A stretch of DNA of 64,000 bases. Source: an uncultured Acidobacteriota bacterium (lineage in GTDB: Bacteria; Acidobacteriota; Thermoanaerobaculia; UBA5066; Gp7-AA6). The notes under the pieces were generated by a model. The model did no database searches, was not told the origin of the DNA, and worked only from the letters and a program-made list of their open reading frames with translations. Both the position numbers and the translations under genes were made by a program. The stretch lies in the NCBI GenBank assembly GCA_963764715.1, contig CAVXTP010000015.1, positions 161,693-225,692 of the forward strand. Reading direction: 5' to 3'. Of this stretch, positions 46,690-63,993 are shown piece after piece. Position 1 is the first letter of the stretch; every line of letters begins with the position of its first letter.

Positions 46690-46702
46690 TTCGCCAGGAG
46701 CC

Positions 46703-47763: not shown

Positions 47764-47768
47764 GGGCG

Positions 47769-48130: not shown

Positions 48131-48159
48131 TTGCATGCTGGTCCCACTCCTCCTATACT
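48131..48159 (+). promoter_or_regulatory. Putative sigma70 promoter
   Basis: TTGCAT-17bp-TATACT, 7 nt before ATG 48167. Confidence 0.6.
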
Positions 48160-48166
48160 GAACCGG

Positions 48167-49025: not shown

Positions 49026-49202
49026 ACTCGTCGATCTCGCGGTCGGCCGCCTGGCTTATTGGTCTCGACCTCGATCCCTCGTGGCACAGCATCAGCGAGT
49101 GGGCAATCGGTCCTCACGGCTGACCTCGGCGCGCTGCTCGCCCCGGCCGGCCTGGCTCACATGCTGGCCGGGGCCACGTGAAATTAGATAGTGCTTCGGT
49201 CC

Positions 49203-49277
49203 GTCTACGGGTGGCGGGGCAGCGGCGAGCTCCGAGGCGAAGCCGAGGAGCGAGTCCGCTGCACCCGCGGGTTAGGC
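49203..49277 (-). repeat. attC with a 1-bp deletion in the core
   Basis: gtctac gggtggcgggg...gttaggc. Confidence 0.88.
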
Positions 49278-49514
49278 GGCCACGTGAAGCTTGTCGTACA
49301 AGAACTCCGGTGCGAAGTCCGCACCGTTGGGCCAGGCGATTGTTCCGAGGTCGCTCGAAACTGCAAACCGCTGAAAGTAGCCTCGGTCCCGAAGCGGCTC
49401 GAACACCGGGCCGTGAAGGTCGGCTGAGAGATCCACCTCACCGCTGACGCCATCCTCGAACCTCAGCCAGATCGTGAAGTCCCTGACGTATCGAGCTTCC
49501 ACTACGTCAACCAT
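49272..49514 (-). CDS. DUF2442 family protein (putative TA partner)
   Basis: LRFEDG...TIAWPNGADFAPE; TAA inside the attC. Confidence 0.85.
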   Translation of the reverse strand: MVDVVEARYVRDFTIWLRFEDGVSGEVDLSADLHGPVFEPLRDRGYFQRFAVSSDLGTIAWPNGADFAPEFLYDKLHVAA

Positions 49515-50035: not shown

Positions 50036-50071
50036 GACAGCACTCTACGCCAGCGCAGGTGGCTTAGGGCC

Positions 50072-50147
50072 GCCTAACGGGTGGCGGGTCAGCGGCGCGT
50101 GAAGAGCCGAAGGCGATAAACGCGTCCGCTGCACCCGCGGGTTAGGC
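50072..50147 (-). repeat. attC, intact
   Basis: gcctaac...gttaggc, 76 bp. Confidence 0.95.
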
Positions 50148-50172
50148 GGCGGCTGATCGTGATGCCGAGATC

Positions 50173-50418
50173 TCACACGCAATCCCCGTGGAAGACGCAT
50201 GCGAACCACAAGGCCGTGAAGATGAACGCTGCGCCGAAACCGACTGCAGTGCACACGGACGCCACCGCGAGAGCAGTGGCTGACCGGCGGCTCAGACGCC
50301 AAGCCATGATCGCCATTATCGCGCCAGGAAGCCACGTGAGTCCCAGGATCGCTACCCATGTCCCCACGTAGGGCGCGACGGGATCCCATACCGGCGACGC
50401 GTCGCCTGCTGCTTTCAC
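50173..50418 (-). CDS. Small membrane protein, possibly 5'-truncated
   Basis: Two hydrophobic helices ending before the attC. Confidence 0.5.
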   Translation of the reverse strand: MKAAGDASPVWDPVAPYVGTWVAILGLTWLPGAIMAIMAWRLSRRSATALAVASVCTAVGFGAAFIFTALWFACVFHGDCV

Positions 50419-50419
50419 G

Positions 50420-51826
50420 TCAGGCTCGCGGCTGGGCGGTGGTCGCTTCGAAGAGCTTCACCAAGTTGCTCTCCGCCGCGGCCCGAAACCGTGTGATGCG
50501 CTCCCGAGCGTCAAGGACATCCGGAGCATCGCGATAGCGCGCGATTTCGCCCAGCGGATTGAGCCGTGTTTCCTTCGCCCAGCTCGCAAGCGTCGGGTGC
50601 GCTGCCCGAGCCCGTTCGTTCGCAAGAGTCGCGAGGAACGCCGACAGGTAGTCCCTGATCGAATCCCAGTAGGGGATGGGCGGGCAGATGCGGTTCTTCT
50701 CGTTGTCGCTCTCGACCGTGGCCTCGAGCACGCCCAGCATGGCGAACTGATAGCAGACAAAACCCCACAGGAACGGCTGTATCGTCACTCGGCCGGCCTC
50801 GAAGATCGGCCGAAGCGGAGGGCTCGCCAGCCCTCTCGACGCGCAGTGGACATGCACCGTCCTCTCGTTCGTCGGGACGCGGCCCTTGTCCAGGACGATC
50901 TCGTCACGCTCGATCCTCAGCACGTGACCCAGGCGGACCACGTCCTCGATCCGGCGCAGAAGCCCCCGCTCGGCCTCGCTGACCACCCCTCCGTGGAACA
51001 TCGTCGGCGTCACGCCGGGATCGATGCGAAGAAGGAACTCTTCCTCTTCGAGGCGCGCAACGAGATCCCGGACCGAAGCCGCCGTCGCCATGGCCTCGAA
51101 CTGGATCGCCATGCCCCGATAGAAGTTCGGAAGCAGCTCGTGGGGCTGGTGAAACCGGCGGTTCAGCCACCACGCGTCGCGCGGCCTGATCCAGCGGATC
51201 GCCGGCGCGGGGACGCCCTGTTCCAGCAACCATACGCACGCGTCCAGGGCAGTCTTGCCCGCACCGATGATGACGAAGCGCTCGGGGCGCTCCCTCAGCT
51301 GCGCGATCTCGCCTGCGGGCAGGCAGCGAACGCCGTCGGCCACCTCGAAGGGAGGCGCGCTAGTGGCGGGAATGGCGCCTTCGAGATAGGTCGTGTCCAC
51401 GATCTTCTTCAGCACGCGCACCCTGCACGACCGTTTCGCGAGCCTCGAGACGAAACGGCCCTCCCCGACGTAGTCGCTCGAAGGGAAATAGCCGACGCGG
51501 CCGCTGGGCAGAAAGACGCGATGCATCACGTGCTCGTAATAGGCTCGAATCTCGTCCGCGCCGGCGAGCTCGTAGTAGCCGACATTCGTCCCGGCCACGT
51601 CGCGAGCGTCATGTCCGAGCGGCACGGAGCCGACTCCATAGAAAGCGGAAGGCTGATGGAGACGGACGTAGGGGTACGCGTCGATCCAGTGCCCGCCGGG
51701 AGCGAGGCGGCGATCGACGATCGTGATCGTCGCGCCGGAATGCGCGAGGAGCGCGTCGGTAAACGCCATCCCCGCTGCCCCGGCACCGACCACGAGATAG
51801 TCTGTTTCGAGCTCTTCGTCGGCCAC
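50420..51826 (-). CDS. FAD/NAD(P)-binding oxidoreductase
   Basis: VVGAGAAG, PGGHW, IIGAGKT. Confidence 0.85.
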   Translation of the reverse strand: MADEELETDYLVVGAGAAGMAFTDALLAHSGATITIVDRRLAPGGHWIDAYPYVRLHQPSAFYGVGSVPLGHDARDVAGTNVGYYELAGADEIRAYYEHVMHRVFLPSGRVGYFPSSDYVGEGRFVSRLAKRSCRVRVLKKIVDTTYLEGAIPATSAPPFEVADGVRCLPAGEIAQLRERPERFVIIGAGKTALDACVWLLEQGVPAPAIRWIRPRDAWWLNRRFHQPHELLPNFYRGMAIQFEAMATAASVRDLVARLEEEEFLLRIDPGVTPTMFHGGVVSEAERGLLRRIEDVVRLGHVLRIERDEIVLDKGRVPTNERTVHVHCASRGLASPPLRPIFEAGRVTIQPFLWGFVCYQFAMLGVLEATVESDNEKNRICPPIPYWDSIRDYLSAFLATLANERARAAHPTLASWAKETRLNPLGEIARYRDAPDVLDARERITRFRAAAESNLVKLFEATTAQPRA

Positions 51827-51855
51827 CCGACGATGATATTCACTTCGGAAGGCGC

Positions 51856-51885
51856 GCCCAACGGACGACGCGTCAGCGGCCAGCC
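51856..51885 (-). repeat. Half attC remnant
   Basis: gcccaac ggacgacgcgtcagcggc. Confidence 0.55.
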
Positions 51886-51938
51886 AGAACAAGGGGCGCT
51901 GAGCCTCCTGCCCTCACGCAACCATGCGCCTTCCGGCC

Positions 51939-52017
51939 GCCTAACGGGTGGCGGGTCAGCGGCGAGCGAGCCCGAGCAAAGCGAGGGACGCGAGTCCGCT
52001 GCACGCGCATGTTAGGC
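51939..52017 (-). repeat. attC, intact, 79-bp variant
   Basis: gcctaac...gttaggc. Confidence 0.93.
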
Positions 52018-52079
52018 CGCCGCCTAGCCGGCAGCGGGCGGTCGGAACCCCACGCGGCGGGAGCAATCGGACGGTGGCA

Positions 52080-52982
52080 TCACGGCCCGTCCGTCGACTC
52101 GAAGAACTCTTTGGTATCGGGACGACTGAATGGGTTGCGAAAGAACGTTTCAACGGTCAGATTGAACAACGCGGGGTCCTGCCAAGGAATCATGTGGGTC
52201 GCTGCAGGGAAGATGCAGAGCTGTGCCTTTGGGAGATCATGAAATATCTGCAACGTGTGAGCATCCCGTATCACATCCTTGTCGCCCGCCATTACCAGTG
52301 TCGGTGCAGACACGCTCTTTAGTTTCTCGGCCGGAATATTCGGTTGCTTGCCCAGCAGATCCAATTGCTGCTTGTAGACCGACCACGGCTGGGACGTATC
52401 GGCCTTCTTAATCATCGCATCCACTAGCCTCTCCTGCTTCGCGACCCAGGCACGGGCCCAATCATAGGCCCCACTGGGATTCAGATTGGCACCCATGATG
52501 GCCAATTTCGCCACCTTGTCCGGATGGTTGATGGCAAGCAGCAGACCGACAATCCCGCCGTCACTCCACCCGAGCACGTACACGTCTTTCAAGCCCAGTG
52601 CTTGCAGCAAGGCGTTGGCGTCTTCAGCCATCTGCTCGTAGGTCAAGCGCCCGGCCCCCATTTCGCTCTTTCCATGACCTCGACTGTCAGCTGCGACGAC
52701 TTGGTATTGCTCGGAGAAGAACTTGATCTGATTGCCCATGGCGGAAATGCTTTGTCCGTTGCCGTGAATCTGTAACATCGCTGGACCCTTGCCATAAGTC
52801 TCAAAGTAGAGCTTGATCCCGTTAAGCTCTTGGAATCGGCCGGTGGATTCGTTGCTGCCGTAGGGAGGGTCAAACGTGGGCGGTGTCAGCGGCTCAGAGT
52901 TCACCGATCCAGACGAAACGTTGAGCAGGCTCGACGCCAACAACAGAGTCCAGAGTGGGTTCCGGCTCCTTGGAGCTCTCAT
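52080..52982 (-). CDS. Secreted alpha/beta hydrolase cassette
   Basis: DSRGHG, GWSDGG; GGAGG RBS. Confidence 0.88.
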   Translation of the reverse strand: MRAPRSRNPLWTLLLASSLLNVSSGSVNSEPLTPPTFDPPYGSNESTGRFQELNGIKLYFETYGKGPAMLQIHGNGQSISAMGNQIKFFSEQYQVVAADSRGHGKSEMGAGRLTYEQMAEDANALLQALGLKDVYVLGWSDGGIVGLLLAINHPDKVAKLAIMGANLNPSGAYDWARAWVAKQERLVDAMIKKADTSQPWSVYKQQLDLLGKQPNIPAEKLKSVSAPTLVMAGDKDVIRDAHTLQIFHDLPKAQLCIFPAATHMIPWQDPALFNLTVETFFRNPFSRPDTKEFFESTDGP

Positions 52983-53020
52983 CTTCCTCCCTCCATGAGG
53001 TTGTCGACCGTTTTCCAGCG

Positions 53021-53096
53021 GCCTAACGGGTGGCGGGTCAGCGGCGCGTGAAGAGCCGAAGGCGAGGAGCGAGTCCGCTGCACCCGCGGGTTAGGC
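53021..53096 (-). repeat. attC, intact
   Basis: Consensus repeat. Confidence 0.95.
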
Positions 53097-53402
53097 GCGC
53101 CGCCGCGTCCCGGTTGTGCGAACAACATCGAGGACTGCCTCAGGGTGCTTGGCCACGATTCTCAGAAGGATTCGGGCGCTTCCTTCCGGCTTCCGACGCC
53201 CCTGTTCCCAGTTTCTGAGCGTGCCCGCGCTGATACCCATTAGCGCCGCAAACTTCGATTGGCTGAGTCGGTAACCTTTTCGAACAGCCCGAACGTCCGG
53301 CTCATCAATCTGAAACACACGGGACGCCTTGCGCCGTCCCCGCAGAATCTCGCCACCCTCCTGGACGCTCTGGAGAAGCTCCTTGAACAGTTCTTCCTTC
53401 AT
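53091..53402 (-). CDS. HigA-like HTH antitoxin
   Basis: LSQSKFAALMGIS...NWEQGRRKP; TAA inside the attC. Confidence 0.9.
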   Translation of the reverse strand: MKEELFKELLQSVQEGGEILRGRRKASRVFQIDEPDVRAVRKGYRLSQSKFAALMGISAGTLRNWEQGRRKPEGSARILLRIVAKHPEAVLDVVRTTGTRRRA

Positions 53403-53716
53403 CGGTACTCCGTTTCGACGATCTGTCGCAATAGCTTCTTCTGCGCCGGCCCGATATCGGCCCTCTCGCTCTTCGTGAAAGCGAAGAGCATCAAGAGCCG
53501 GCTTGAGACCGGGTGCCAGAAGTAGATCACTCGACAGCCTCCGCGTTTGCCACGCCCCTTCGAACCCCAGCGAAGCTTCCGCAGCCCGCCAGTTCCCGGA
53601 ATGACGTCGCCCGCCGCCGGGCGCCGGACCAAGTGAAGCTGAAGGTCACGGTATTCATCTTGGGTCAGCAGGTCATCGATCCGCGCGGTGAACGCGCGAG
53701 TCTCAAGAATGACCAC
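53399..53716 (-). CDS. HigB/RelE-like toxin
   Basis: GDVIPGTGGLRKLRW...GKRGGCRVIY. Confidence 0.9.
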   Translation of the reverse strand: MVILETRAFTARIDDLLTQDEYRDLQLHLVRRPAAGDVIPGTGGLRKLRWGSKGRGKRGGCRVIYFWHPVSSRLLMLFAFTKSERADIGPAQKKLLRQIVETEYR

Positions 53717-53724
53717 GGTGTGGG

Positions 53725-53753
53725 ACTATACGCCAATGGCGTAATGCGGTCAA
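53725..53753 (-). promoter_or_regulatory. TA promoter with operator palindrome
   Basis: TTGACC-17bp-TATAGT; TACGCCA-T-TGGCGTA. Confidence 0.8.
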
Positions 53754-53767
53754 GGCCCCTTTAGCGC

Positions 53768-53843
53768 GCCTAACGGGTGGCGGGTCAGCGGCGAGCTCCG
53801 AGGCGAAGCCGAGGAGCGAGTCCGCTGCACCCGCGGGTTAGGC
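53768..53843 (-). repeat. attC, intact
   Basis: Consensus repeat. Confidence 0.95.
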
Positions 53844-53849
53844 GCGTCG

Positions 53850-54389
53850 TTAGTCGGATAGCCAGACATGGACCCACCCTTTCCGTGTCTTGACAAAAGC
53901 AATATCCGTCGCTTCGATCGCTCCGGTCACCAGTACTTCGTGGTCGCTCGTGAACGTAACTACTTGGCCCGGCCCGAGCTCCCCGTCCAAGCAGCAGTCA
54001 TCAAACTTCCCTGGCGCCGCCTTATCGACGAAGAGCCGCATTCGGTATTCTGATGGCCCTGCGTTCCAGACCTTCTCAAATCGCCAGGACTTCCCTTCAA
54101 GCGTGGCGACGACCAGCCACACTCTGTCACCATCCGTGAGGAGGAAGCCGTAGTCCCTCTTGCCACGAGCGGTGAAGCTACCTCTCGTGACCCCCAGGCA
54201 GCCGTCGCCGCCGTGATCAACCTGATACTGGATGTCCTCGGGCAAGTTGTCAGACTGCCTCGGCAGTGCGCCGCCGGGGAACGCCTGTGAAGCCGCCGTC
54301 CTTAGGTCGTATGGAAGAACGCACGCATCAGGCGGCCGAGGAGCGCCGGCGACGACGAACGAAAAGGCAATGAGCAGACTAGCCAGCAT
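53850..54389 (-). CDS. Secreted orphan protein, paralogue 1 of 3
   Basis: DAC...FP...EDIQYQVDHGGDGCLG...WVHVWLSD. Confidence 0.8.
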   Translation of the reverse strand: MLASLLIAFSFVVAGAPRPPDACVLPYDLRTAASQAFPGGALPRQSDNLPEDIQYQVDHGGDGCLGVTRGSFTARGKRDYGFLLTDGDRVWLVVATLEGKSWRFEKVWNAGPSEYRMRLFVDKAAPGKFDDCCLDGELGPGQVVTFTSDHEVLVTGAIEATDIAFVKTRKGWVHVWLSD

Positions 54390-54408
54390 TTGGAACTGTA
54401 GCGAACGC

Positions 54409-54484
54409 GCCTAACGGGTGGCGGGTCAGCGGCGAGCTCCGAGCCGAAGGCGAGGAGCGAGTCCGCTGCACCCGCGGGTTAGGC
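54409..54484 (-). repeat. attC, intact
   Basis: Consensus repeat. Confidence 0.95.
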
Positions 54485-54493
54485 AGCCCTTCG

Positions 54494-55063
54494 TCAGTCC
54501 GCGATCCGCACATGGATCCAACTCCCCTTGAGGAAGAAGAACGCCAGGGCCCAGGATTCGAGCTTTCCTGCGAGAATGCCTTCTCTGGCGCTGTTGACGA
54601 TAGCGAGCTCCCCGACATCCAGCGCCCCCTCTGCGGACTCCGAGCGAACGTACTTGCCTGGCTCCAGCTTCTCCGCGTATAGCCAACCGATAGGCATCGG
54701 GAACTCGTAGATCTTCTGAATCTCCCACCGGTCACGACCAAGTGCGCGCGCGACGACTAGGATCGATGACCCACTGCCGCCTCGCGCGCCGAGTAGGACT
54801 GCAATCTCCGGCGCTGCTGTATGGAAGCCCCCACCAGTGATCCCTAAGCACGCCGAGCCGCCGTGCTCCACCGAGTATTTGACATCCTCGGGATCCCAGT
54901 CCTTCGCGAACGGTAATCGATACTCCGGAAACTGTGCATCGATCTGGGCGACCAACGGCCTCGGTATCAGCCCCGCACAGGCATCAATACTGCCGCCGTC
55001 TTGAGCGAACACCGGCCTACTCGCGAACACGAGCAGCAACAGTAGGCCGATGCGAAGGATCAC
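54494..55063 (-). CDS. Secreted orphan protein, paralogue 2; in frame with the attC
   Basis: DAC...EDVKYSVEHGGSACLG...WIHVRIAD. Confidence 0.8.
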   Translation of the reverse strand: MILRIGLLLLLVFASRPVFAQDGGSIDACAGLIPRPLVAQIDAQFPEYRLPFAKDWDPEDVKYSVEHGGSACLGITGGGFHTAAPEIAVLLGARGGSGSSILVVARALGRDRWEIQKIYEFPMPIGWLYAEKLEPGKYVRSESAEGALDVGELAIVNSAREGILAGKLESWALAFFFLKGSWIHVRIAD

Positions 55064-55078
55064 TCTGCTGATCGGGCT

Positions 55079-55154
55079 GCCTAACGGGCTGCGCGTCAGC
55101 GGCGAGTGAGGAGGCGAAGCCGACGAACGAGTCCGCTGCACGCGCGTGTTAGGC
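55079..55154 (-). repeat. attC, intact
   Basis: Consensus repeat with paired arm changes. Confidence 0.95.
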
Positions 55155-55188
55155 CGCGCCAGCCGTGTCATCGGTTGAGCCTGGACAT

Positions 55189-56118
55189 CTAGTGATAGCC
55201 CCACACGAAGTCGCAGCGCGATGTGAAACCGTGGCTGAACAAGAAGTAGCCGTCCGCGTTGTGAAGGGACCTTCCGAACAGTACCTCGGACCTGCCGTCG
55301 CCATCGTAATCGCCAGCATCAACGAGCGAAAGATCAGAGCCAAGAGGCGTTACGTGTTTGCCATCGACTAGGAACATGTACGTGATCGGGTAGTCAATAC
55401 CGCTCTCAGCGGGAGGCGAACAGCCGGTCAACTCAACCGACAACAGGCCTCGACCATCCGCCGACCTGTAGGCCCGCGCGAGCTTGAGAGACCGATCGTC
55501 GCACCGGAACGAGATGGATTCCGTCTCTCCTCCCTCCTCGAGAGTGACAGGTAGGCCCGATCCCAAAAGTTGCCGGAGCTGAATAAACCTGTCTTTCAGA
55601 GTTTCCGGCGGTGGCGTATTCCTTCGCCACCGATCTGGATCCCGCCACGATTCCCCCGTCACCACGACGAGGGGTCGGACCTGGGTATTTCCAGGCCACC
55701 ATGAGGGATCGCGCGATTCGGGCGACGCCATCACGGGTGCCGGCAGCGTTGAGGACGTGATGAGCTGCAGGCCGATCGAACCATAGGATCGACCCTCTTC
55801 CGGCCGCTTGGTCACTACTTCGCCAAGCGCCTTTCCATCGCTTACAACCGTCCACCGGATCGGGCTCGGATACCAGTTTGGACTCTCCCGAAGCGATGGC
55901 AGATCGTGCGCCTGTGCATGAACTATCTCCCAGACGCCATTCCTCTTCTCGAAAACGACCCTAACCCTCGGGAAGGGTGCGCCTCCTTCCGCATTTGCCT
56001 CCTCGGCATTGAGGCCACCTCGCTCGAAAAAGCCTACGTACGTCGTTTCGAGATCCCGTGCCTCAGGGACGCCAGCGCGGATTCCGACGTGAAGTACCAG
56101 GGCGGCAAGCCAAGTCAT
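55189..56118 (-). CDS. Secreted hypothetical protein with a DYDGDG motif
   Basis: DAGDYDGDGRSEVLF. Confidence 0.75.
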   Translation of the reverse strand: MTWLAALVLHVGIRAGVPEARDLETTYVGFFERGGLNAEEANAEGGAPFPRVRVVFEKRNGVWEIVHAQAHDLPSLRESPNWYPSPIRWTVVSDGKALGEVVTKRPEEGRSYGSIGLQLITSSTLPAPVMASPESRDPSWWPGNTQVRPLVVVTGESWRDPDRWRRNTPPPETLKDRFIQLRQLLGSGLPVTLEEGGETESISFRCDDRSLKLARAYRSADGRGLLSVELTGCSPPAESGIDYPITYMFLVDGKHVTPLGSDLSLVDAGDYDGDGRSEVLFGRSLHNADGYFLFSHGFTSRCDFVWGYH

Positions 56119-56132
56119 AACTTCTGAGCGCG

Positions 56133-56208
56133 GCCTAACGGGTGGCGGGTCAGCGGCGAGCGCCGTAGCGAAGCGTAGGCGCGAGTCCGCTGCACCCGCG
56201 GGTTAGGC
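56133..56208 (-). repeat. attC, intact
   Basis: Consensus repeat. Confidence 0.95.
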
Positions 56209-56224
56209 GCCTGCGACGGGGGCA

Positions 56225-56971
56225 CTACGGCCACTGAAGACCGAGCATTTTCGCGAAGAAGACGGCCACCTGCCCACGAGTCACGAAGGCATTCGGACAG
56301 TAGTTCTGATCTCCGCAGCCAGCCGTCACTCCTGCCGCCGCGAAGGCCTCTATGAACTGATAGTAAGGATTCGACGGGGGCACATCGAGAAACGTCTGCC
56401 CAACTGGCTCGCTAACCTGGAGCTCATACTGCAACGCCGCTCCGGACAACGAGGTTGTCGCGTCCCCCGCCATCGTTCTGGCGCTCAGCACCAACGTCGT
56501 GTTTACGTTGTCAACCCTGAATGGTGGCGTGACTGCCGCCATCGAGGATACACAGGGTATTCCCTGGTCCCCAACTGCGGTAGCCAAAAGAAATGGCGAG
56601 GTGCCGTCGAAATTCGCCACGTACAGCTCGAGCACCACGCCGTTCGGTACGGTCGCGTTGCAGTAATCCAATTCGATTCCGGTGACCAGCGCCCCACCGG
56701 GTAGGTGTGGGTTCGCGATGAAGCGACCATCTGGAACCGTCGAGAACCGGGACATGATGACACCGCCGGACCGGAACTGGTCATCGTAGGTAGTACCCGT
56801 GCTGATCGGCGAGAACTCTGCGGCCCCCAAGCGATACACGGACACGTTTGGTCCGAATGTGGTTGGATCCATTGCGTGGCTGCGAGCATGCCTAACGTCT
56901 ACTTGCGCGAGCCCAAGTGACGAAAGAACGCAGAGACTCGAAATGCCGATCCAAACGATCTTTGACCTCAT
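56225..56971 (-). CDS. Secreted protein with C-terminal SLH domain
   Basis: FLDVPPSNPYYQFIEA...YCPNAFVTRGQ; AAGGAG RBS. Confidence 0.85.
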   Translation of the reverse strand: MRSKIVWIGISSLCVLSSLGLAQVDVRHARSHAMDPTTFGPNVSVYRLGAAEFSPISTGTTYDDQFRSGGVIMSRFSTVPDGRFIANPHLPGGALVTGIELDYCNATVPNGVVLELYVANFDGTSPFLLATAVGDQGIPCVSSMAAVTPPFRVDNVNTTLVLSARTMAGDATTSLSGAALQYELQVSEPVGQTFLDVPPSNPYYQFIEAFAAAGVTAGCGDQNYCPNAFVTRGQVAVFFAKMLGLQWP

Positions 56972-57033
56972 TGCTTCGACTCCTTAGGTTCCGGATCGGT
57001 CAGAACCAGCTGACCACCAAGACTCTTGCGGGC

Positions 57034-57109
57034 GCCTAACGGGTGGCGGGTCAGCGGCGAGTGACGAGCCGAAGGCGAGGAGCGAGTCCGCTGCACCCGC
57101 GGGTTAGGC
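57034..57109 (-). repeat. attC, intact
   Basis: Consensus repeat. Confidence 0.95.
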
Positions 57110-57113
57110 AGCG

Positions 57114-57689
57114 TCATTGCTCTACCTTGTGTTTCTCTGGCTTGACCTCGCCAAGACGGCGTCCCGTAGGAAGAGGAATGAGCGGCTGCAACGGGCGACT
57201 TTGCGACGGGGGGCTGATGAGCCACCACTCTGTCTGGCGTATGGCGGCCTCGGCTGCGAAATAGAGGTCGCCAATCTCGTACCTCCCGAGATCGGGGGGA
57301 CAGGCGTTCTGAAGAATGTCACCCGCGGAGCTCGAGACGGAGAAACCCTCGTTAAATAAGCAGTCGTAGGGAGGACGGCACAGCGGGGGAAGGTTAGCCA
57401 TTCTGGTGAAGACATAATCGGTCAAGGCCTTGGCCACGACTCCTCTGTATGACCCGTCGGGCATAAACGGAACCCCCTTGCAGACCAGAGCCGCCCTTCC
57501 ATCTGGCCAGATGTCAAGGCTGAAAGAATTAGCCGACGACGAACTAGTTAGAGACGCCATACTTGGCCCGAGTCGTAAGGTCACGAAAGAGACCGATCCC
57601 GTTTCGTCAAGAGGTGCCCGGAACGAGCCCGAGACCACTAGGCCAGCGAACACGGAAAAGCAGACGGAGCTCAGGCTAGAGCTGGCCAT
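57114..57689 (-). CDS. Secreted hypothetical protein
   Basis: Fills the cassette; hydrophobic N-terminus. Confidence 0.7.
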   Translation of the reverse strand: MASSSLSSVCFSVFAGLVVSGSFRAPLDETGSVSFVTLRLGPSMASLTSSSSANSFSLDIWPDGRAALVCKGVPFMPDGSYRGVVAKALTDYVFTRMANLPPLCRPPYDCLFNEGFSVSSSAGDILQNACPPDLGRYEIGDLYFAAEAAIRQTEWWLISPPSQSRPLQPLIPLPTGRRLGEVKPEKHKVEQ

Positions 57690-57702
57690 GTCTCTACGCG
57701 CT

Positions 57703-57778
57703 GCCTAACGGGTGGCGGGTCAGCTGCGGGCGCCGTAGCGAAGCGTAGGCGCGAGTCCACTGCACCCGCGGGTTAGGC
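57703..57778 (-). repeat. attC, intact
   Basis: Consensus repeat. Confidence 0.95.
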
Positions 57779-57869
57779 GGGCGGCTACTCACCGGGGCCG
57801 ACATAGAACTGCCCGACTAACGCGATCGGGTTGAATGGCGCCACCGACGAACGCCAGCCGCGCACTTCC

Positions 57870-58667
57870 TCAGGGCTCCGGCGCTGAAGGTTGCTTCGTC
57901 GCCGACAGAGTTCCCGAGGACAGGCCTTGGCAATCGGTTCCGCCCCACGATCCGGCAGCACTCAGGCCATCCTCGCTGACTGTCAGCAGCAAACCGACCG
58001 TGCCGGAACAGGGGCTGAATTCATAGGCGGTGAGCTGAACTACATCACTCCCCGAGCCCAGGAGATCACCCACCACCCCCTGTAAGACGGCTCCCGCACG
58101 CGGAAGCGCAGCACTCCCAGTGACCGCCGCGCCGTGTTGAACGAGCGTGACGAGTGCCGAGGCGTCCGTGCCGCTATGAAGAGTGACATCCCAAGAGCCC
58201 GTGACATTTGGGCTTATCGAGGTGCCGCCCGCGGTCGATAGATTGGCGGCAAAAAGACTGGCGATGAAGGCCCCGTTACAGTCCGAGCCACTGAACGTGC
58301 CTCCAAACGTGCGGTAATCCGAGCTGATGTTCATGATCCCCGTTCCAGAGCCGGGGCATGGGGCCTGAATCGTCAGACTGAACTCGAGATGCTGGCCCGT
58401 AACGGTGCCGGTGACGGGACCGATGCCCCCGTCCTGAACGGCGAGGAGTCCGGTTACGCTTGATACCGTCTGTACCAAGGAAAGTGTCGCCGCGGCCACG
58501 CGCAGCTGCGGAAACTCCATGAACACGTACCAGGACCCAGTCAGGGTACTCGCGCTCCCGCTCCGATCGGCCAGTACGACAGGCTGTCTTGGAGACTGAG
58601 CTCCTGCCGGCGTGATGGTCAGAACACCAAACAGGACAGTAGCCAGACACCTTGGGCTTCCGCGCAC
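57870..58667 (-). CDS. Secreted protein with two repeated beta domains
   Basis: AGGAGG-GTG start; repeat TGSW...LVQ...VTG...PC.G...G.DC twice. Confidence 0.75.
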   Translation of the reverse strand: MRGSPRCLATVLFGVLTITPAGAQSPRQPVVLADRSGSASTLTGSWYVFMEFPQLRVAAATLSLVQTVSSVTGLLAVQDGGIGPVTGTVTGQHLEFSLTIQAPCPGSGTGIMNISSDYRTFGGTFSGSDCNGAFIASLFAANLSTAGGTSISPNVTGSWDVTLHSGTDASALVTLVQHGAAVTGSAALPRAGAVLQGVVGDLLGSGSDVVQLTAYEFSPCSGTVGLLLTVSEDGLSAAGSWGGTDCQGLSSGTLSATKQPSAPEP

Positions 58668-58804
58668 AGCGAACCTCCTGACCGATTGCTCGATTTCGGC
58701 AACTACTCTACGGTCGCGGCCACCCAAGCGTCATGATGCGCTTTCACCACAAGTGACTTATCCCGCAGGAAGGCCGACTCGACGCTCAATGCTCCGCCAC
58801 GCCC

Positions 58805-58880
58805 GCCTAACGGGTGGCGGGTCAGCGGCGAGCTCCGAGCCGAAGGCGAGGAGCGAGTCCGCTGCACCCGCGGGTTAGGC
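58805..58880 (-). repeat. attC, intact
   Basis: Consensus repeat. Confidence 0.95.
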
Positions 58881-58895
58881 CACGGCAACCAATGC

Positions 58896-59414
58896 CTACT
58901 CATGCGATTTCCGGAACGGTATTGGCTCGGACTTGAGCTTCACGACCGGGATGCTGAGGTTCGGGTACTTGTGACGCAGAAATGACTTGCGCTGCGAGCT
59001 CAACTGCTCGGCATCATCGTTGTGGTAGGTAACGACGAACCGATAGTCCCGATCGGGATCAAGCCCGTACGCCTCCGACCCATCGATTCTTAGCCTTACG
59101 CGTTGCGGCGCGAGAATGTCGATCTCTGTTCCGAACAACTCCTCGCCCGCGTCCTTATCGCCTCTGAGCATCTGGAAATCGGATTCTGATGGCGAAGGAC
59201 AACTCGCGCGCGGGCCGAAATGCCCTACTGGCACTCCACGGTCATCCTGGACCTCAACCTCCACGTAGCACCCCAGGGTAGTCCGCGGCGTCAAGAGTAC
59301 GAGCGTTGAACCTTCCGCCACGAGAAGAACTTGTAGGAATCGACCTCTCACGACCTGCGCGCGCAACTCGAGCGTACCCATGATTCCGAGTGCGACGGCA
59401 AGTAGCGCCGGCAT
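58896..59414 (-). CDS. Hypothetical exported protein
   Basis: Fills the cassette. Confidence 0.7.
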   Translation of the reverse strand: MPALLAVALGIMGTLELRAQVVRGRFLQVLLVAEGSTLVLLTPRTTLGCYVEVEVQDDRGVPVGHFGPRASCPSPSESDFQMLRGDKDAGEELFGTEIDILAPQRVRLRIDGSEAYGLDPDRDYRFVVTYHNDDAEQLSSQRKSFLRHKYPNLSIPVVKLKSEPIPFRKSHE

Positions 59415-59427
59415 GCTAGTTTCCGTG

Positions 59428-59503
59428 GCCTAACGGGTGGCGGGTCAGCGGCGAGCCCCGTAGCGAAGCGTAGGGGCGAGTCCGCTGCACCCGCGGGTTA
59501 GGC
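59428..59503 (-). repeat. attC, intact
   Basis: Same variant as 63431. Confidence 0.95.
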
Positions 59504-59516
59504 GGCTGGCCCAACA

Positions 59517-59900
59517 TTAGTTTCTGCGCCACGGAAGCGGACCCGGCGTGGAGAGGATCACAGGCTGATCAAAAGAGAGATTTAACGCGATAACCAGCGG
59601 TCGTGCCAGCCGCTCCTTGGTAATCACAAACGGCCCAACACGCGTATCGACAAAACCCGACCCGGTTGCGAGGATCTCGTACTTGGCTCCATATTCAGCC
59701 GTGAACAAGGCATCGCCGGTGGAATCCGTCACGCGTCCCCAAATTGGCTCCTCGCCTGAGTGGCCGGCACGAAACGCGGCGAGCACTATCCCAGGAACCG
59801 CGCGGCAATCTGCGTCGAGGACGCGCACGAGGAGTCGGGGCGGCTCGCTTGCCGGACCGCGTAACAAGAACGCGGTAACAAGCGCGAGTTCAGTCAACAT
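59517..59900 (-). CDS. Carboxypeptidase-regulatory-like domain protein (cassette B, copy 1)
   Basis: VPG...TDSTG...GF; same protein as 63520..63903. Confidence 0.75.
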   Translation of the reverse strand: MLTELALVTAFLLRGPASEPPRLLVRVLDADCRAVPGIVLAAFRAGHSGEEPIWGRVTDSTGDALFTAEYGAKYEILATGSGFVDTRVGPFVITKERLARPLVIALNLSFDQPVILSTPGPLPWRRN

Positions 59901-59914
59901 GTGTATCTCCAGCC

Positions 59915-59990
59915 GCCTAACGGGTGGCGGGTCAGCGGCGAGCTCCGAGGCGAAGCCGAGGAGCGAGTCCGCTGCACCCGCGGGTTAGGC
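59915..59990 (-). repeat. attC, intact
   Basis: Consensus repeat. Confidence 0.95.
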
Positions 59991-59997
59991 GGCCTCA

Positions 59998-60552
59998 CTA
60001 ATCGCTCTCCGACGAGGTGAACATCCTCTGGGATCGACACGCTGCTGACTGTCCAGCTGGCACCCTCGAGCGTGAGCGTAACGGTATCTGAACCTCCCGA
60101 GGCATGTCGCCGATTGTTCGACACCGGGCAGCTTCGCCACGTCCAAGCGTTGACAGTTGCGCTGCCGGACCATGCTCCCGCTGGCGGCTCGAGCTCCAAG
60201 ACAGTCGTCTGACCGGGAAACGCTTTAACAACAGGCGGCGGCGCGACCGGCTTGCGACATCCCGGCTATCGCGTCAAGCCGGTCATCGACATCCACCACA
60301 ACGGGTACCTCGGCTGCCACCGAAACCAAGTCAAGCCTGAGCCTTGAGTCGTCCCGCGTAGCGCGCCAACACGACAGATTCCGAATCGGACGAGGTCACC
60401 GCGGAGACGGCAGCCGCCACGATTGGCCGCTGGGAGGCTGGCAGCGGCAACGGAGAACCCCACGAGCCAAATCGACTTGGGGCCTGGGCCTGCGATGCGC
60501 ACGCGCTGGCCATTAGGCATAGCCCCACAAGCCACGGACCTCGATTGAGGAC
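59998..60552 (-). pseudogene. Lipoprotein homologous to 28897..29484, with frameshifts
   Basis: SACAS...FGSWG...VVLARYAG, then RLDL...DVD and FPGQTTVLE...VTLTLEGASW in another frame. Confidence 0.7.
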
Positions 60553-60628
60553 GCCTAACGGGTGGCGGGTCAGCGGCGAGCCCCGAAGCGGAGCGCAGGG
60601 GCGAGTCCGCTGCACCCGCGGGTTAGGC
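60553..60628 (-). repeat. attC, intact
   Basis: Same variant as 62955. Confidence 0.95.
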
Positions 60629-60635
60629 CACGCCA

Positions 60636-61023
60636 TCAGCCAAGGCGCCAAGTCACCGTAACCCTAAGCCACACGGCTACTGGCTCGCCCTCCAGCGTGG
60701 CAGGTTTGTAGCCCCACTGGCGAGCAGCGAGCACCGCCTGCCGATCCATGCGCATCGTTCACGCTCTCCATCACAACGACGTCTTGAACAATCCCCTCGC
60801 GACTCACGAGGAGCTTCATGACGACGATGCCTTGGTTGGACGTGTCACGAAGTGCTGGTGGCCACACCGGGTCCACGCGCTTCGAGATAACGGGGGCAAC
60901 AACCCGCGCGACATCATCGTGCCACTGGCCGTCTTGAGCCTGATAGGCAAGGACGCTCTTCGGTTCAGGCGCCGTGGTCGCACAGCCAATCAAGAATCCT
61001 GCGATGACCGCAGCGCTGAACAT
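60636..61023 (-). pseudogene. TonB C-terminal domain lipoprotein (cassette A, copy 1; +1 bp near 60750)
   Basis: Matches 63038..63424 except gatccatGcgcatc. Confidence 0.8.
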
Positions 61024-61029
61024 AGCGTG

Positions 61030-61105
61030 GCCTAACGGGTGGCGGGTCAGCGGCGAGTGACGAGCCGAAGGCGAGGAACGAGTCCGCTGCACCCGCGTGT
61101 TAGGC
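61030..61105 (-). repeat. attC, intact
   Basis: Consensus repeat. Confidence 0.95.
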
Positions 61106-61112
61106 CGCTCGC

Positions 61113-61619
61113 TCATTGCCGTGGCTGATCCTTCGCCACCTGATCACGCACCCACGTGACCCAGGCGTCATCCGAGCCATGCACTTGCTCATTAAGCGGT
61201 GACAGCGGATCCCATTCAGCCGTGTACTGCCCATCTCGAGTCCGAAGGATCACGAGAAACATGCCTCCCTTGCGGTAATTCGCCGCCCAGCACGTCCCCC
61301 CTCTGCCCCCTGGCCTCACGAACTTGTACGGAGGATCGTGGTCGTTGAAATCGTCGGCTGACGTCAGATGTCCGCCCAAGGCGACTTGCCTCGGTACGGC
61401 CTTCCCTTTGAGAACCTCGATCACGTCGAACTCGATTTCGCCATCCGACGACCCTGACGGATCTGGCTCGCGAAGGTACTTTGCCGCCGACACAAGCAGA
61501 ATCGTGTCTGCTGCTCGGACTAGGTAGACCGGATCGACCTCGCCCACCCTCTGGCACGGGAACAACACACCGGCAGAGAAAACGGCAGCCGCAAGAACTG
61601 ACGCCACCGCGCTGAACAA
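61113..61619 (-). CDS. Secreted hypothetical protein, in frame with the attC, no own ATG
   Basis: Hydrophobic stretch directly after the attC; FDVIEVLKG. Confidence 0.72.
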   Translation of the reverse strand: MFSAVASVLAAAVFSAGVLFPCQRVGEVDPVYLVRAADTILLVSAAKYLREPDPSGSSDGEIEFDVIEVLKGKAVPRQVALGGHLTSADDFNDHDPPYKFVRPGGRGGTCWAANYRKGGMFLVILRTRDGQYTAEWDPLSPLNEQVHGSDDAWVTWVRDQVAKDQPRQ

Positions 61620-61622
61620 GCG

Positions 61623-61698
61623 GCCTAACGGGTGGCGGGTCAGCGGCGAGCGCCGTAGCGAAGCGTAGGCGCGAGTCCGCTGCACCCGCGTGTTAGGC
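61623..61698 (-). repeat. attC, intact
   Basis: Consensus repeat. Confidence 0.95.
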
Positions 61699-62259
61699 GA
61701 CCCGGTCAAAGCAAAAATCCGCATTGAGGTGAGGCCGAAATTCGTAGTGATACCTGATGATCTCATGCAGCGGTGTATCTGGAGCGACCGGGTCCGCTGA
61801 GCTTGGCTCAGAGTCGAGCAAGTCCATGGCTCGATCCTGGGCCTTGAGCTCCTCTATTACTTCGTCTGCAGTTCGATCCGCCGGCAGGTATCGCTCGCCC
61901 CGAAACCACGTTCCATCTGACTCGAGCTTTCGCACGTAAATTGAGGAAGCTGCTCTCGCCGTAAGCCTGGCGAGCACTTTGTGAACACACACGCCTTCGA
62001 TAATCAAGGGTCGGCCCGCAGATCGGACGGCGGCGGCCAGCTCAGCGTACCGAATCTCTTCAACGTACCGGCCCCGGCCCTTCTCAAGAAACTCATCCAG
62101 CTCAAGATGCGATGCGCCGAGCTCCTGTGCGAGTTGCGCTGCCAGATACGACTTTCCCGACCCGTCGAAGCCATCGCACGTGATGATGCTCCCCGCGACC
62201 AGAGGTGTAGCGGCTGCGACAGCGCCGCGCAGAGCATTGACGTCACGCGTGGTGATCAC
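61693..62259 (-). CDS. P-loop kinase-like protein
   Basis: DGFDGSGKS, LIIEG; TAA inside the attC. Confidence 0.75.
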   Translation of the reverse strand: MITTRDVNALRGAVAAATPLVAGSIITCDGFDGSGKSYLAAQLAQELGASHLELDEFLEKGRGRYVEEIRYAELAAAVRSAGRPLIIEGVCVHKVLARLTARAASSIYVRKLESDGTWFRGERYLPADRTADEVIEELKAQDRAMDLLDSEPSSADPVAPDTPLHEIIRYHYEFRPHLNADFCFDRVA

Positions 62260-62278
62260 GATGCTGTTTCTTCGGGTC

Positions 62279-62354
62279 GCCTAACGGGTGGCGGGTCAGC
62301 GGCGAGCTCCGAGCCGAAGGCGAGGAGCGAGTCCGCTGCACCCGCGTGTTAGGC
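62279..62354 (-). repeat. attC, intact
   Basis: Consensus repeat. Confidence 0.95.
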
Positions 62355-62363
62355 GGCCTGCCG

Positions 62364-62927
62364 CTAGTCTGAGAGCCACACATTGATCCAACCCTTTGAC
62401 CCAAGGCAATACGCAAATGCCCAGGCCTCCGTCTTGCCCGTGATTACGCACGGCCTTCGGCTTGTGAATGACCGCACCTCTCCCGGCCGGAAGCCCTCGC
62501 CCTCGGCATCAACAACCTCGGACCGCTCGTACTTGCCTGGCTTCCCCCGCTCCACGAAGAGGCCGCCGAGGAAATCGAACTCTGCCAGTGTCGTGATTTG
62601 CCACTTCTGTTTACGCGCAAGCGCTGCGAGCACGAGCATCTTGCCTTCTCCCTCCGGTCTGATGATGAGGGCGAGGTCCATTTGGCCGTCTCCGTCATAG
62701 TCTCCCAGCGCAGCCCCCAAACAGCCGCTTCCGCCATGCTCGAGGTTGTACGCAATATCTTCCTCTGAACTGTCGGCCGCGAGCGGAAGACGGTGGTGAG
62801 GGAACCGCTCCTTCAAGGCCTTCGCCAGAGACGCCGGAATGAGGCTTCCGCATGCGTCAGCCTGCGCCACCTCAGCAGGAGCTAGACCACAGAACCCGAG
62901 TGTGAGCAGCGCAGCGAACCCTGCCAC
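62364..62927 (-). CDS. Secreted orphan protein, paralogue 3; in frame with the attC
   Basis: DAC...EDIAYNLEHGGSGCLG...GDYDGDG...WINVWLSD. Confidence 0.8.
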   Translation of the reverse strand: MAGFAALLTLGFCGLAPAEVAQADACGSLIPASLAKALKERFPHHRLPLAADSSEEDIAYNLEHGGSGCLGAALGDYDGDGQMDLALIIRPEGEGKMLVLAALARKQKWQITTLAEFDFLGGLFVERGKPGKYERSEVVDAEGEGFRPGEVRSFTSRRPCVITGKTEAWAFAYCLGSKGWINVWLSD

Positions 62928-62954
62928 CGAGCGCCGCCACCTTGCGCCCTGGCC

Positions 62955-63030
62955 GCCTAACGGGTGGCGGGTCAGCGGCGAGCCCCGAAGCGGAGCGCAG
63001 GGGCGAGTCCGCTGCACCCGCGGGTTAGGC
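62955..63030 (-). repeat. attC, intact
   Basis: Consensus repeat. Confidence 0.95.
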
Positions 63031-63037
63031 CACGCCA

Positions 63038-63424
63038 TCAGCCAAGGCGCCAAGTCACCGTAACCCTAAGCCACACGGCTACTGGCTCGCCCTCCAGCGT
63101 GGCAGGTTTGTAGCCCCACTGGCGAGCAGCGAGCACCGCCTGCCGATCCATCGCATCGTTCACGCTCTCCATCACAACGACGTCTTGAACAATCCCCTCG
63201 CGACTCACGAGGAGCTTCATGACGACGATGCCTTGGTTGGACGTGTCACGAAGTGCTGGTGGCCACACCGGGTCCACGCGCTTCGAGATAACGGGGGCAA
63301 CAACCCGCGCGACATCATCGTGCCACTGGCCGTCTTGAGCCTGATAGGCAAGGACGCTCTTCGGTTCAGGCGCCGTGGTCGCACAGCCAATCAAGAATCC
63401 TGCGATGACCGCAGCGCTGAACAT
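63038..63424 (-). CDS. TonB C-terminal domain lipoprotein (cassette A, copy 2, intact)
   Basis: LIGC lipobox; PVWP...QGIV...AVLAARQWGYKPA..GEPV. Confidence 0.85.
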   Translation of the reverse strand: MFSAAVIAGFLIGCATTAPEPKSVLAYQAQDGQWHDDVARVVAPVISKRVDPVWPPALRDTSNQGIVVMKLLVSREGIVQDVVVMESVNDAMDRQAVLAARQWGYKPATLEGEPVAVWLRVTVTWRLG

Positions 63425-63430
63425 AGCGTG

Positions 63431-63506
63431 GCCTAACGGGTGGCGGGTCAGCGGCGAGCCCCGTAGCGAAGCGTAGGGGCGAGTCCGCTGCACCCGCGGG
63501 TTAGGC
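63431..63506 (-). repeat. attC, intact
   Basis: Consensus repeat. Confidence 0.95.
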
Positions 63507-63519
63507 GGCTGGCCCAACA

Positions 63520-63903
63520 TTAGTTTCTGCGCCACGGAAGCGGACCCGGCGTGGAGAGGATCACAGGCTGATCAAAAGAGAGATTTAACGCGATAACCAG
63601 CGGTCGTGCCAGCCGCTCCTTGGTAATCACAAACGGCCCAACACGCGTATCGACAAAACCCGACCCGGTTGCGAGGATCTCGTACTTGGCTCCATATTCA
63701 GCCGTGAACAAGGCATCGCCGGTGGAATCCGTCACGCGTCCCCAAATTGGCTCCTCGCCTGAGTGGCCGGCACGAAACGCGGCGAGCACTATCCCAGGAA
63801 CCGCGCGGCAATCTGCGTCGAGGACGCGCACGAGGAGTCGGGGCGGCTCGCTTGCCGGACCGCGTAACAAGAACGCGGTAACAAGCGCGAGTTCAGTCAA
63901 CAT
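63520..63903 (-). CDS. Carboxypeptidase-regulatory-like domain protein (cassette B, copy 2)
   Basis: Same protein as 59517..59900. Confidence 0.75.
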   Translation of the reverse strand: MLTELALVTAFLLRGPASEPPRLLVRVLDADCRAVPGIVLAAFRAGHSGEEPIWGRVTDSTGDALFTAEYGAKYEILATGSGFVDTRVGPFVITKERLARPLVIALNLSFDQPVILSTPGPLPWRRN

Positions 63904-63917
63904 GTGTATCTCCAGCC

Positions 63918-63993
63918 GCCTAACGGGTGGCGGGTCAGCGGCGAGCTCCGAGGCGAAGCCGAGGAGCGAGTCCGCTGCACCCGCGGGTTAGGC
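63918..63993 (-). repeat. attC, intact
   Basis: Consensus repeat. Confidence 0.95.

Follow-up and report, generated by a model that had tools for sequence, protein, structure and literature searches.

In large chromosomal integrons the cassettes lying far from the promoter are usually seen as a silent reserve, and the hairpins of their attC recombination sites as barriers to expression. For single sites a way across this barrier has been described: the accessible text of a review (PMC8876359) credits Jacquier et al. 2009 (Mol Microbiol 72:1475) with the finding that a short open reading frame (ORF) within attC can relieve the hairpin barrier by termination-reinitiation, and a further paper, in its accessible part, likewise cites coupling "as in Jacquier et al., 2009". 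Within the same limits of the accessible texts, ORF-11, ORF-17 and ORF-18 of attI1 are reported to couple the first cassette (Hanau-Bercot 2002; Papagiannitsis 2017; PMC8876359, PMC8024014), and in class 1 arrays stops placed in the upstream cassette lowered both the mRNA and the protein of the next cassette, a 98-bp untranslated stretch before attC having the same effect (PMC11511950). The present analysis concerns the attC sites of a cassette array in an uncultured soil Acidobacteriota bacterium and the short ORF that runs through them; the window, i.e., the whole stretch of DNA analysed, comprises 64,000 nucleotides (G000:C15:161693-225692), and the contig ends at its right edge. The starts and stops that flank these sites are locked in phase with a single open frame of attC, and judging from this pattern each attC is probably the body of a short ORF (median 38 codons) that would be translated across the site by termination-reinitiation, so that one cassette may hand its ribosomes on to the next.

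The window covers the distal portion of an integron array on the chromosome, with 19 intact attC sites on the minus strand between 50072 and 63993. Both core boxes (GCCTAAC ... GTTAGGC) are present in all 19 and the length, measured from CCT to GGC, is 75 nt in 18 of them and 78 nt in the remaining one. F0 denotes the frame that reads CCT AAC ... TTA GGC on the coding strand, and counts by phase are given below as triplets with F0 first. This frame, whose peptide is PNPRVQRTR...HPLG, has no stop in any of the 19 sites, while F+2 is closed by the TAA of the R'' box and F+1 by a TGA and the TAG of the R' box; the preliminary description, made from the window alone, was thus right in stating that one attC frame is open and two are closed. 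The intact sites are the following:

63918-63993, minus strand: attC, R'' GCCTAAC ... R' GTTAGGC; contig end 7 nt upstream, its own cassette gene lying outside the window
63431-63506, minus strand: attC, 75 nt, F0 open
62955-63030, minus strand: attC, 75 nt, F0 open
62279-62354, minus strand: attC, 75 nt, F0 open
61623-61698, minus strand: attC, 75 nt, F0 open; the TAA inside R'' is the stop of the upstream gene
61030-61105, minus strand: attC, 75 nt, F0 open
60553-60628, minus strand: attC, 75 nt; duplicate of 62955-63030
59915-59990, minus strand: attC, 75 nt; identical to 63918-63993
59428-59503, minus strand: attC, 75 nt; duplicate of 63431-63506
58805-58880, minus strand: attC, 75 nt, F0 open
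57703-57778, minus strand: attC, 75 nt, F0 open
57034-57109, minus strand: attC, 75 nt; RNA hairpin of -37.1 kcal/mol
56133-56208, minus strand: attC, 75 nt; RNA hairpin of -46.1 kcal/mol
55079-55154, minus strand: attC, 75 nt, F0 open
54409-54484, minus strand: attC, 75 nt, F0 open
53768-53843, minus strand: attC, 75 nt, F0 open
53021-53096, minus strand: attC, 75 nt; the TAA inside R'' ends the antitoxin-like gene 53091-53402
51939-52017, minus strand: attC, 78-nt variant, F0 open; no F0 start within 60 nt upstream
50072-50147, minus strand: attC, 75 nt, F0 open

Around these sites the F0 frame forms ORFs that begin in or just after one cassette gene and reach the next cassette:

63425-63520, minus strand: F0 relay ORF; TAATG over the TAA of gene 63520-63903, through attC and in frame with the TonB_C gene starting at 63424
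62928-63038, minus strand: F0 relay ORF; TGATG over the TonB_C stop, sharing the frame of the next gene (called start 62927)
62243-62383, minus strand: F0 relay ORF of 46 codons; ATG 17 nt before the upstream TAG, stop 14 nt past the called GTG of the next gene
61620-61724, minus strand: F0 relay ORF; ATG 29 nt before the TAA stop in R'', in frame with the next gene
61024-61116, minus strand: F0 relay ORF; ATGA over the upstream stop, sharing the frame of the frameshifted TonB_C copy
60331-60636, minus strand: F0 ORF from a TGATG motif, running 101 codons into a decayed cassette without a tidy exit
59894-59998, minus strand: F0 relay ORF of 34 codons; GTG start, TGA 4 nt inside the next gene (ATGTTGA)
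59416-59517, minus strand: F0 relay ORF of 33 codons; TAATG entry, TAG one base before the next ATG
58703-58903, minus strand: F0 ORF of 66 codons; ATG 5 nt before the upstream TAG, stop 22 nt past the called TTG start
57694-57804, minus strand: F0 relay ORF of 36 codons; TAG 4 nt before the next ATG
56968-57117, minus strand: F0 relay ORF of 49 codons; ATGA overlap at both ends
56115-56225, minus strand: F0 relay ORF of 36 codons; TAGTG entry, ATGA exit
55064-55171, minus strand: F0 relay ORF; ATG after a 6-codon ORF 3' of the upstream TAG, sharing the frame of the next gene (called start 55063)
54379-54513, minus strand: F0 relay ORF of 44 codons; ATG 17 nt before the upstream TGA, stop 8 nt past the next ATG
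53750-53869, minus strand: F0 ORF of 39 codons; stop 36 nt short of the RelE-like gene in a toxin-antitoxin cassette
52979-53128, minus strand: F0 relay ORF of 49 codons; ATGA exit onto an alpha/beta-hydrolase gene
50045-50200, minus strand: F0 ORF of 51 codons spanning the last intact attC

An F0 start lies within 60 nt at 17 of the 18 window junctions having upstream sequence, being ATG in 15 cases; 11 of the F0 ORFs are closed (33-66 codons) and six continue into the next cassette. The preliminary description had read these junctions as a hand-over of ribosomes, and the overlaps on which it relied are all found where it placed them. The overlapping starts are present at 63431 and 59428 (TAATG), 62955 and 60553 (TGATG), 61030 and 57034 (ATGA), 58805 (ATG-AG-TAG) and 56133 (TAGTG), as are, at 62279, 54409 and 53768, an in-frame ATG placed 17 nt ahead of the stop and, at 55079, the entry through a 6-codon ORF; the same is true of the exits, namely ATGA at 57034, 56133 and 53021, TAG-C-ATG at 59428, TAG-4nt-ATG at 57703 and ATGTTGA at 59915 and 63918. 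Two of its entries survive only as motifs: the TGATG at 60553 is no longer the stop of the TonB_C gene, because a 1-nt indel shifts the frame of that copy and makes its ORF end 39 nt before attC, and the GTGA at 50072 ends a putative 81-codon ORF and not the 490-aa gene of that cassette. The six in-frame fusions it listed come to five, with four distinct downstream cassettes, and its tally of 16 coupled sites out of 19 can be reached with loose distance limits and with duplicates counted, the number of independent sites being smaller than 19 because two cassettes are duplicated.

The window by itself has too few sites for chance to be judged, and therefore the same attC type was gathered from relatives, the comparative set consisting of 15 array stretches from 12 genomes that belong to five genera of one family. 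The 5' half of this attC type occurs in 69 of 105 genomes of the family, a tally that includes the unpublished genomes G051, G079 and G104, used in the tally only. Of the 543 sites with both ends in the 12 genomes, 512 have a length divisible by 3. In-frame sites fall into classes of 39, 57, 60, 66, 69, 75, 78, 87, 93, 96, 114 and 117 nt, each class of other length comprising five sites at most, and among the nine length classes with at least five distinct sequences eight are multiples of 3 (57, 60, 69, 75, 78, 96, 114 and 117). Within 359 distinct in-frame attC a stop is found in one site for F0, in 355 for F+1 and in 303 for F+2. The opening of F0 extends to the variable centre of the site, where the stops number 0/12/10: when the centres were permuted (500 permutations) an F0 stop appeared in 19.3 sites on average and never in fewer than seven, and in the long classes of 114 and 117 nt the centre has no F0 stop as against 10 and 9 in the other frames.

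The position of starts and stops with respect to this frame was analysed without recourse to gene calls by counting ATG in the 45 nt before R'' and stop codons in the 45 nt after attC, CTG serving as control, in 408 distinct upstream and 416 distinct downstream flanks from the 12 genomes. Upstream ATG is distributed 219/36/35 by phase (chi-square p 4e-51), and a bias in the same direction is seen with GTG (226/113/101) and TTG (105/52/63), the CTG control giving 121/97/94. The ATG bias recurs in each of the five genera (93/17/13, 17/2/2, 16/3/6, 72/9/9 and 21/5/5), within the length classes 57, 69, 75 and 114, and in the genome of the window taken alone (21/5/2 in 30 distinct flanks). Downstream, the stops are distributed 327/172/142, and the TGA of ATGA overlaps 88/23/23. 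The opposite strand of the same sites has no F0 excess, the counts being 61/94/76 for ATG and 150/133/153 for stops. Since the F0 starts occupy many distances from attC, all of them in phase, they do not represent a fixed DNA motif.

The same relationship emerges from the cassette genes. A forward ORF spans at least half of the cassette in 412 of the 486 cassettes called in the 12 genomes, and the corresponding proteins were grouped by blastp into 303 families, each counted once. In 292 family representatives the gene stops by frame are 32/112/148. When the gene ends in F+1 before attC its stop overlaps an F0 start in 85 of 107 cases (ATGA 41, GTGA 29, TTGA 5, stop plus NTG 10), compared with 18 of 80 for stops in the other frames (Fisher 5e-15); as a genome-wide baseline, 34% of the ordinary stops of 2890 long ORFs display any such overlap, 9.7% ATGA and 16% GTGA. 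In 83 families the gene ends at the TAA inside R'', and in 17 it reads through attC in F0. On the downstream side the frames of the gene starts are distributed 79/91/133. In 123 of the 303 families no more than 6 nt separate the first F0 stop from the next start, the control frames giving 39 and 36, and starts in F+2 are overlapped by a stop (NTGA or stop-NTG) in 91 of 133 cases, those in the other frames in 29 of 79 and 38 of 91. These results persist when the genome of the window is left out (281 families).

A different outcome was obtained for the in-frame fusion of attC with the next gene, which is not enriched: F0 accounts for 47 of the 303 families, against 62 and 111 in the control frames, and fusion is therefore rejected as an exit route. 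Of the hand-over proposed in the preliminary description, what stands, through five genera and all controls, is a shared frame that starts near the upstream stop and ends near the next start, while the exit by fusion does not.

Codon usage does not account for the starts. In a control that keeps the relative frame with respect to the gene, an open ATG is present in the last 16 codons in 58% of the cases if F0 is that frame and in 5% otherwise, the corresponding values for the other relative frame being 45% and 9%. At the level of the whole junction (n = 387 distinct junctions), an F0 start is found within 48 nt in 83% (48% ATG) and an F0 stop within 45 nt in 65%, and 206 junctions (53%) possess a closed F0 ORF with both ends in place, its median length being 38 codons. 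The enrichment over a null that the preliminary description had proposed as a check is thus borne out in five genera by comparison with frame, strand, codon and family controls and with permuted centres. The observation is real and beyond chance, and chance is excluded because of the data from 12 genomes, not by the window alone.

The sequence of events that these regularities suggest is as follows. The start of the relay ORF would lie on the upstream stop or within ~20 nt of it, in the form of ATGA, GTGA, stop plus ATG, or an ATG a few codons before the TAA of R'', and its stop would fall in the first nucleotides of the next cassette, mostly as NTGA over the start of the latter. On finishing gene A a ribosome would reinitiate on the relay ORF, unwind the RNA hairpin of attC (-37 to -56 kcal/mol) in passing, and stop at the start codon of gene B, to reinitiate there. 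The short backward movement that a restart upstream of an F+2 stop would need is a property of bacterial reinitiation. Since the crossover would lie inside R', between the G and the TTAGGC, the entry signal and the body of attC would move with the upstream cassette and the exit signal with the downstream one; any cassette would be compatible with any other because the frame, and the divisibility of the length by 3, are retained in all attC variants.

Three features of the sites are relevant to this sequence of events. First, isolated attC folded as RNA have energies of -37.1, -55.8 and -46.1 kcal/mol, with z-scores from -2.5 to -6.2, the folds combining an R''/R' stem with an asymmetric internal loop and one bulged base. 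When one attC was folded within 151 nt of its surroundings, the energy was no better than that of shuffled versions (z = 0.02), only the isolated sites being distinct. Second, in the compact length classes the next start is at a median of 12-21 nt from R' (leader medians 12.5, 16, 19 and 21 nt), a Shine-Dalgarno (SD)-like 4-mer precedes only 20-39% of the cassette genes, and an SD-like motif is found before 17 of 77 and 22 of 88 F0 ATGs. A purine motif resembling GGC-N-GAAG occurs 3-9 nt after GTTAGGC in unrelated cassettes and may be either a weak ribosome-binding site or an extension of the recombination site. Third, in three genomes of the genus of the window the attI site contains ATG CAA/CGA GCG/CGG TTA GGC in F0 just before the first cassette. 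This frame ends, in both G038 and G036, in a TGA overlapping the ATG of the first cassette, and in G000 it shares the frame of the first gene, so placed that the attI ATG would feed the first cassette in the same frame; no F0 ATG was found in the attI of two genomes of genus g6, and attI was not located in G025.

As mentioned above, we regard it as likely that the attC works as the body of a translated ORF. On a broader reading our opinion is evenly divided, namely that attC has been turned into a universal translated linker, with one frame standard in attI and in every attC and with insertions and deletions only in threes, so that cassettes reshuffled into any order, in arrays reaching ~90 of them, would constitute an unbroken coupled chain fed by a single upstream start.

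Several points speak against a hand-over of this kind. Only 53% of the 387 junctions are complete, 17% lacking an F0 start within 48 nt and 35% an F0 stop within 45 nt. About half of the cassette genes end in F+2, where an F0 overlap of stop and start is impossible, and in these the ribosome would have to back up 5-20 nt to reach the restart codon. Lengths that are multiples of 3 occur also in two unrelated arrays having all frames closed, G138 and G267 (L117, L120; from YYY to RRY, 123 nt in one and 96 and 123 nt in the other), and because of this the length rule alone is weak evidence. SD-like motifs are not significantly rarer in the overlapped genes (17 of 84 compared with the rest, p = 0.24), and the integrase is frameshifted in the genome of the window. 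Start codons were set by a simple first-start rule; the cassettes and genomes are kin, a dependence that the removal of duplicates lowers, though not to zero; and a fixed G in the codon just before CCT inflates the F0 NTG counts at that single position. Finally, what the sequences show are the starts and stops locked in phase, the open frame, the length rule, the hairpins and the co-orientation of the integrase; translation of F0, polycistronic transcription and a gain in expression for the next cassette are inferred.

Among the other explanations, the one that fares best holds that the F0 ORF is translated in order to keep a long transcript covered by ribosomes, so that hairpins are melted, Rho-dependent polarity is blocked and mRNA decay is slowed, with no hand-over taking place. 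The F0 ORF does close the untranslated gap at attC, and the effects of upstream stops and of the 98-bp untranslated stretch on the mRNA and protein of the next cassette, in the accessible text of the class 1 study (PMC11511950), are what would be expected. Yet coverage does not require that the relay stop be placed on the next start, as it is in the case of the F+2 starts, nor that the downstream ATGA be locked in phase. We consider it unlikely that coverage is the whole explanation, and the two roles are compatible and not mutually exclusive.

A second explanation is that F0 just happens to be open and that early F0 stops serve as insulation, ending read-through from upstream genes without a stop of their own and keeping out-of-frame ribosomes off the next gene. 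The 17 of 292 family representatives that are in F0 and continue across attC as far as a stop in the following cassette, together with the depletion of F0 among the gene frames (32/112/148), would agree with such a function. It leaves unexplained the sixfold excess of F0 ATG upstream of attC, the ATGA and GTGA overlaps on the F+1 stops and the F0 ATG in attI, and we judge insulation alone to be very improbable.

Still less credit can be given to the notion that the phase pattern reflects a need of the integrase or of attC folding at the DNA level. It is true that recombination sets the sequence and the symmetry of attC, and that the R'' and R' boxes supply the TAA and TAG closing the other frames, yet the starts and stops in question lie outside the conserved boxes at distances that vary by multiples of 3, the bias is confined to one strand of a nearly palindromic site, and CTG is unbiased. 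Quite as far-fetched is the idea of a functional small protein encoded in F0 and carried by every cassette: a core, PNPR(V/L)QRT...PL(T/S)R.PLG, and the open frame are kept across genera, but the conserved residues map onto the R and L boxes of the recombination site, neither the ends nor the centre are constrained in sequence or length (19 to 39 codons within attC), and none of five peptides matched Pfam at E up to 1. Chance combined with flexible counting in GC-rich sequence, for which one may plead that a 25-codon open frame is common in DNA of 70% GC, that GTGA and other NTG overlaps are frequent at ordinary stops and that in-frame fusion is at or below the chance level, is refuted by the phase counts repeated in five genera, by the family-wise gene calls, by the codon-usage control and by the genus and strand tests, the frame, strand and codon controls and the unrelated integrons all being flat.

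Returning to the array in which the hand-over is proposed, its head probably lies on another contig. Contig C17 of the same genome carries 10 more intact attC with an integron integrase just upstream, whose sequence matches the family model in three frames (C17:9551-10538, minus strand; L001, L002, L007) and is probably frameshifted. As the contig ends inside the array, we infer that C17 and the contig of the window belong to one array. In the five relatives examined an intact intI above the TIGR02249 cut-off lies upstream of the array and on the same strand; this co-orientation of intI with the cassettes distinguishes these integrons from those of class 1, in which the two are divergent. Near position 6347 of C17 (minus strand) there is a 39-nt deletion derivative of attC, PNPRVQRTRHPLG, in which both core boxes are kept and which is still in frame. 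Three attC of the same type are present at 42313, 43259 and 47259 of contig C22 (plus strand), far from the integrase contig, and may represent a cluster without integrase. In relatives, a degenerate attC-like site lies outside the array, upstream of the integrase gene, near 2233756 of G025:C1 (L020), and the array G038:C1:123924-187873 (L009-L012), with ~90 attC, contains many 290-nt cassettes encoding one family of ~50-aa proteins, which stop 50 nt before attC with a conserved spacer.

At the opposite side the array does not end at 50045, where the preliminary description stops; decayed attC run on to ~39371:

49201-49278, minus strand: attC with intact R'' half and degenerate R' (GTAGACGG)
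39349-46778, minus strand: decayed distal array, with attC-like CCT at 46777, 46168, 45407, 44928, 43310, 41711, 39974 and 39371

R'' is mutated in most of the decayed sites (CCTGAC, CCGAAA, CTCAAC), the weakest being that at 39974 with five mismatches, and one is an 87-nt variant; the distal ~10 kb (39349-49278) resemble an old, fossilising end of the array. Most of the window cassettes consist of one minus-strand gene, many without Pfam match; the matches obtained are TonB_C, an AAA_33-like kinase, SLH, a RelE/HTH pair, an alpha/beta hydrolase, an FAD-type oxidoreductase and a cupin, and an Rfam search gave no family match anywhere in the window. The best hit of a P-type ATPase was 91% identical and came from an uncultured Acidobacteriota MAG, those ranking below it being spread over several phyla, so that no taxon can be named from it. 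Among sequencing runs none of RNA was found to contain the region, and two soil DNA runs contain small portions of the window. The cassette at 53091-53716 (minus strand) combines a RelE-like toxin gene with an HTH/MqsA-like antitoxin gene, the latter ending at the TAA of R''. Two cassettes are duplicated (59503-59914 / 63506-63917 and 60628-61029 / 63030-63430). The 60.6-kb copy of the TonB_C cassette has acquired one extra base near 60751, which causes the frameshift mentioned above and the early end of its ORF at 60664. The two TonB_C copies have different upstream cassettes, and identical cassettes are found behind different neighbours.

What would follow if the hand-over of ribosomes across attC were correct? 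Cassettes without promoter, and often without SD, would be translatable in any order by a built-in route, and attC would be an instance of a recombination site shaped by translation as well as by the recombinase. On the broader reading of a universal linker, attC would evolve under constraints of coding as well as of folding, and in such chromosomal arrays the cassettes far from the promoter would not have to be silent. The phase of the ATG before attC and of the stops after it provides a simple sequence test by which integron lineages with and without this system can be sorted, and the question of how position and neighbours set the expression of a cassette becomes testable with a few reporter constructs.

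Such sorting can be illustrated within the phylum, where an integrase is present in 103 of the 301 sampled genomes (the unpublished G249, G151 and G079 being included in this tally only). In 40 flank stretches from 20 integrase-bearing genomes, a simple finder of RYYYAAC ... GTTRRRY hairpins gave at least five attC candidates in three, G138, G267 and G388 (24, 16 and 8 sites). These arrays are like those of the family in having an integrase beside hairpin attC with RYYYAAC and GTTRRRY cores, and unlike them in that all three attC frames contain stops (24/24/24, 16/16/16 and 6/5/5 sites) and the upstream ATG are unphased (11/9/6, 4/6/3 and 2/1/2). Within the family the same finder recovers the signal, for instance 46/4/3 in G060; the absence of the relay from other integrons is read from three arrays, because only these proved usable.

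Comparison with the systems already described shows how far the likeness goes. With the coupling of operon genes through ATGA and TGATG the relay has in common the overlaps of four and five bases and, presumably, termination-reinitiation; unlike in operons, the partner is a linker ORF on a mobile recombination site, so that the coupling outlasts the reshuffling of the genes. The short attI1 ORFs, as presented in the accessible texts, run across the crossover, receive their stop from the inserted cassette and feed a first cassette devoid of its own initiation region, and the attI ORF found here (ATG CAA GCG TTA GGC ... TGA over the cassette ATG) has the layout of ORF-11. Yet ORF-11 is confined to the first position and possesses its own SD, whereas here the same frame recurs at every attC and most F0 ATGs are without an SD-like motif. 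With the class 1 attC ORF, again within the limits of the accessible texts, the common feature is that a ribosome leaving the upstream cassette restarts in attC, is not blocked by the hairpin and restarts on the next cassette; that case concerns particular attC of mobile resistance integrons, whose sites vary in length and sequence, whereas here the frame, the length modulo 3 and the positions of starts and stops are common to hundreds of cassettes that make up entire chromosomal arrays in five genera. In the literature covered, which does not extend to subscription journals, neither a frame-locked ORF across whole arrays nor a length rule was found. The supposition of the preliminary description that an array-wide arrangement had not been reported agrees with this, while a mechanism new in principle cannot be claimed, the review, in its accessible text, crediting it to Jacquier et al. 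2009. The mechanism at a single site being already known, what is new seems to be the shared standard, common to the attC of entire arrays and to attI and kept across five genera.

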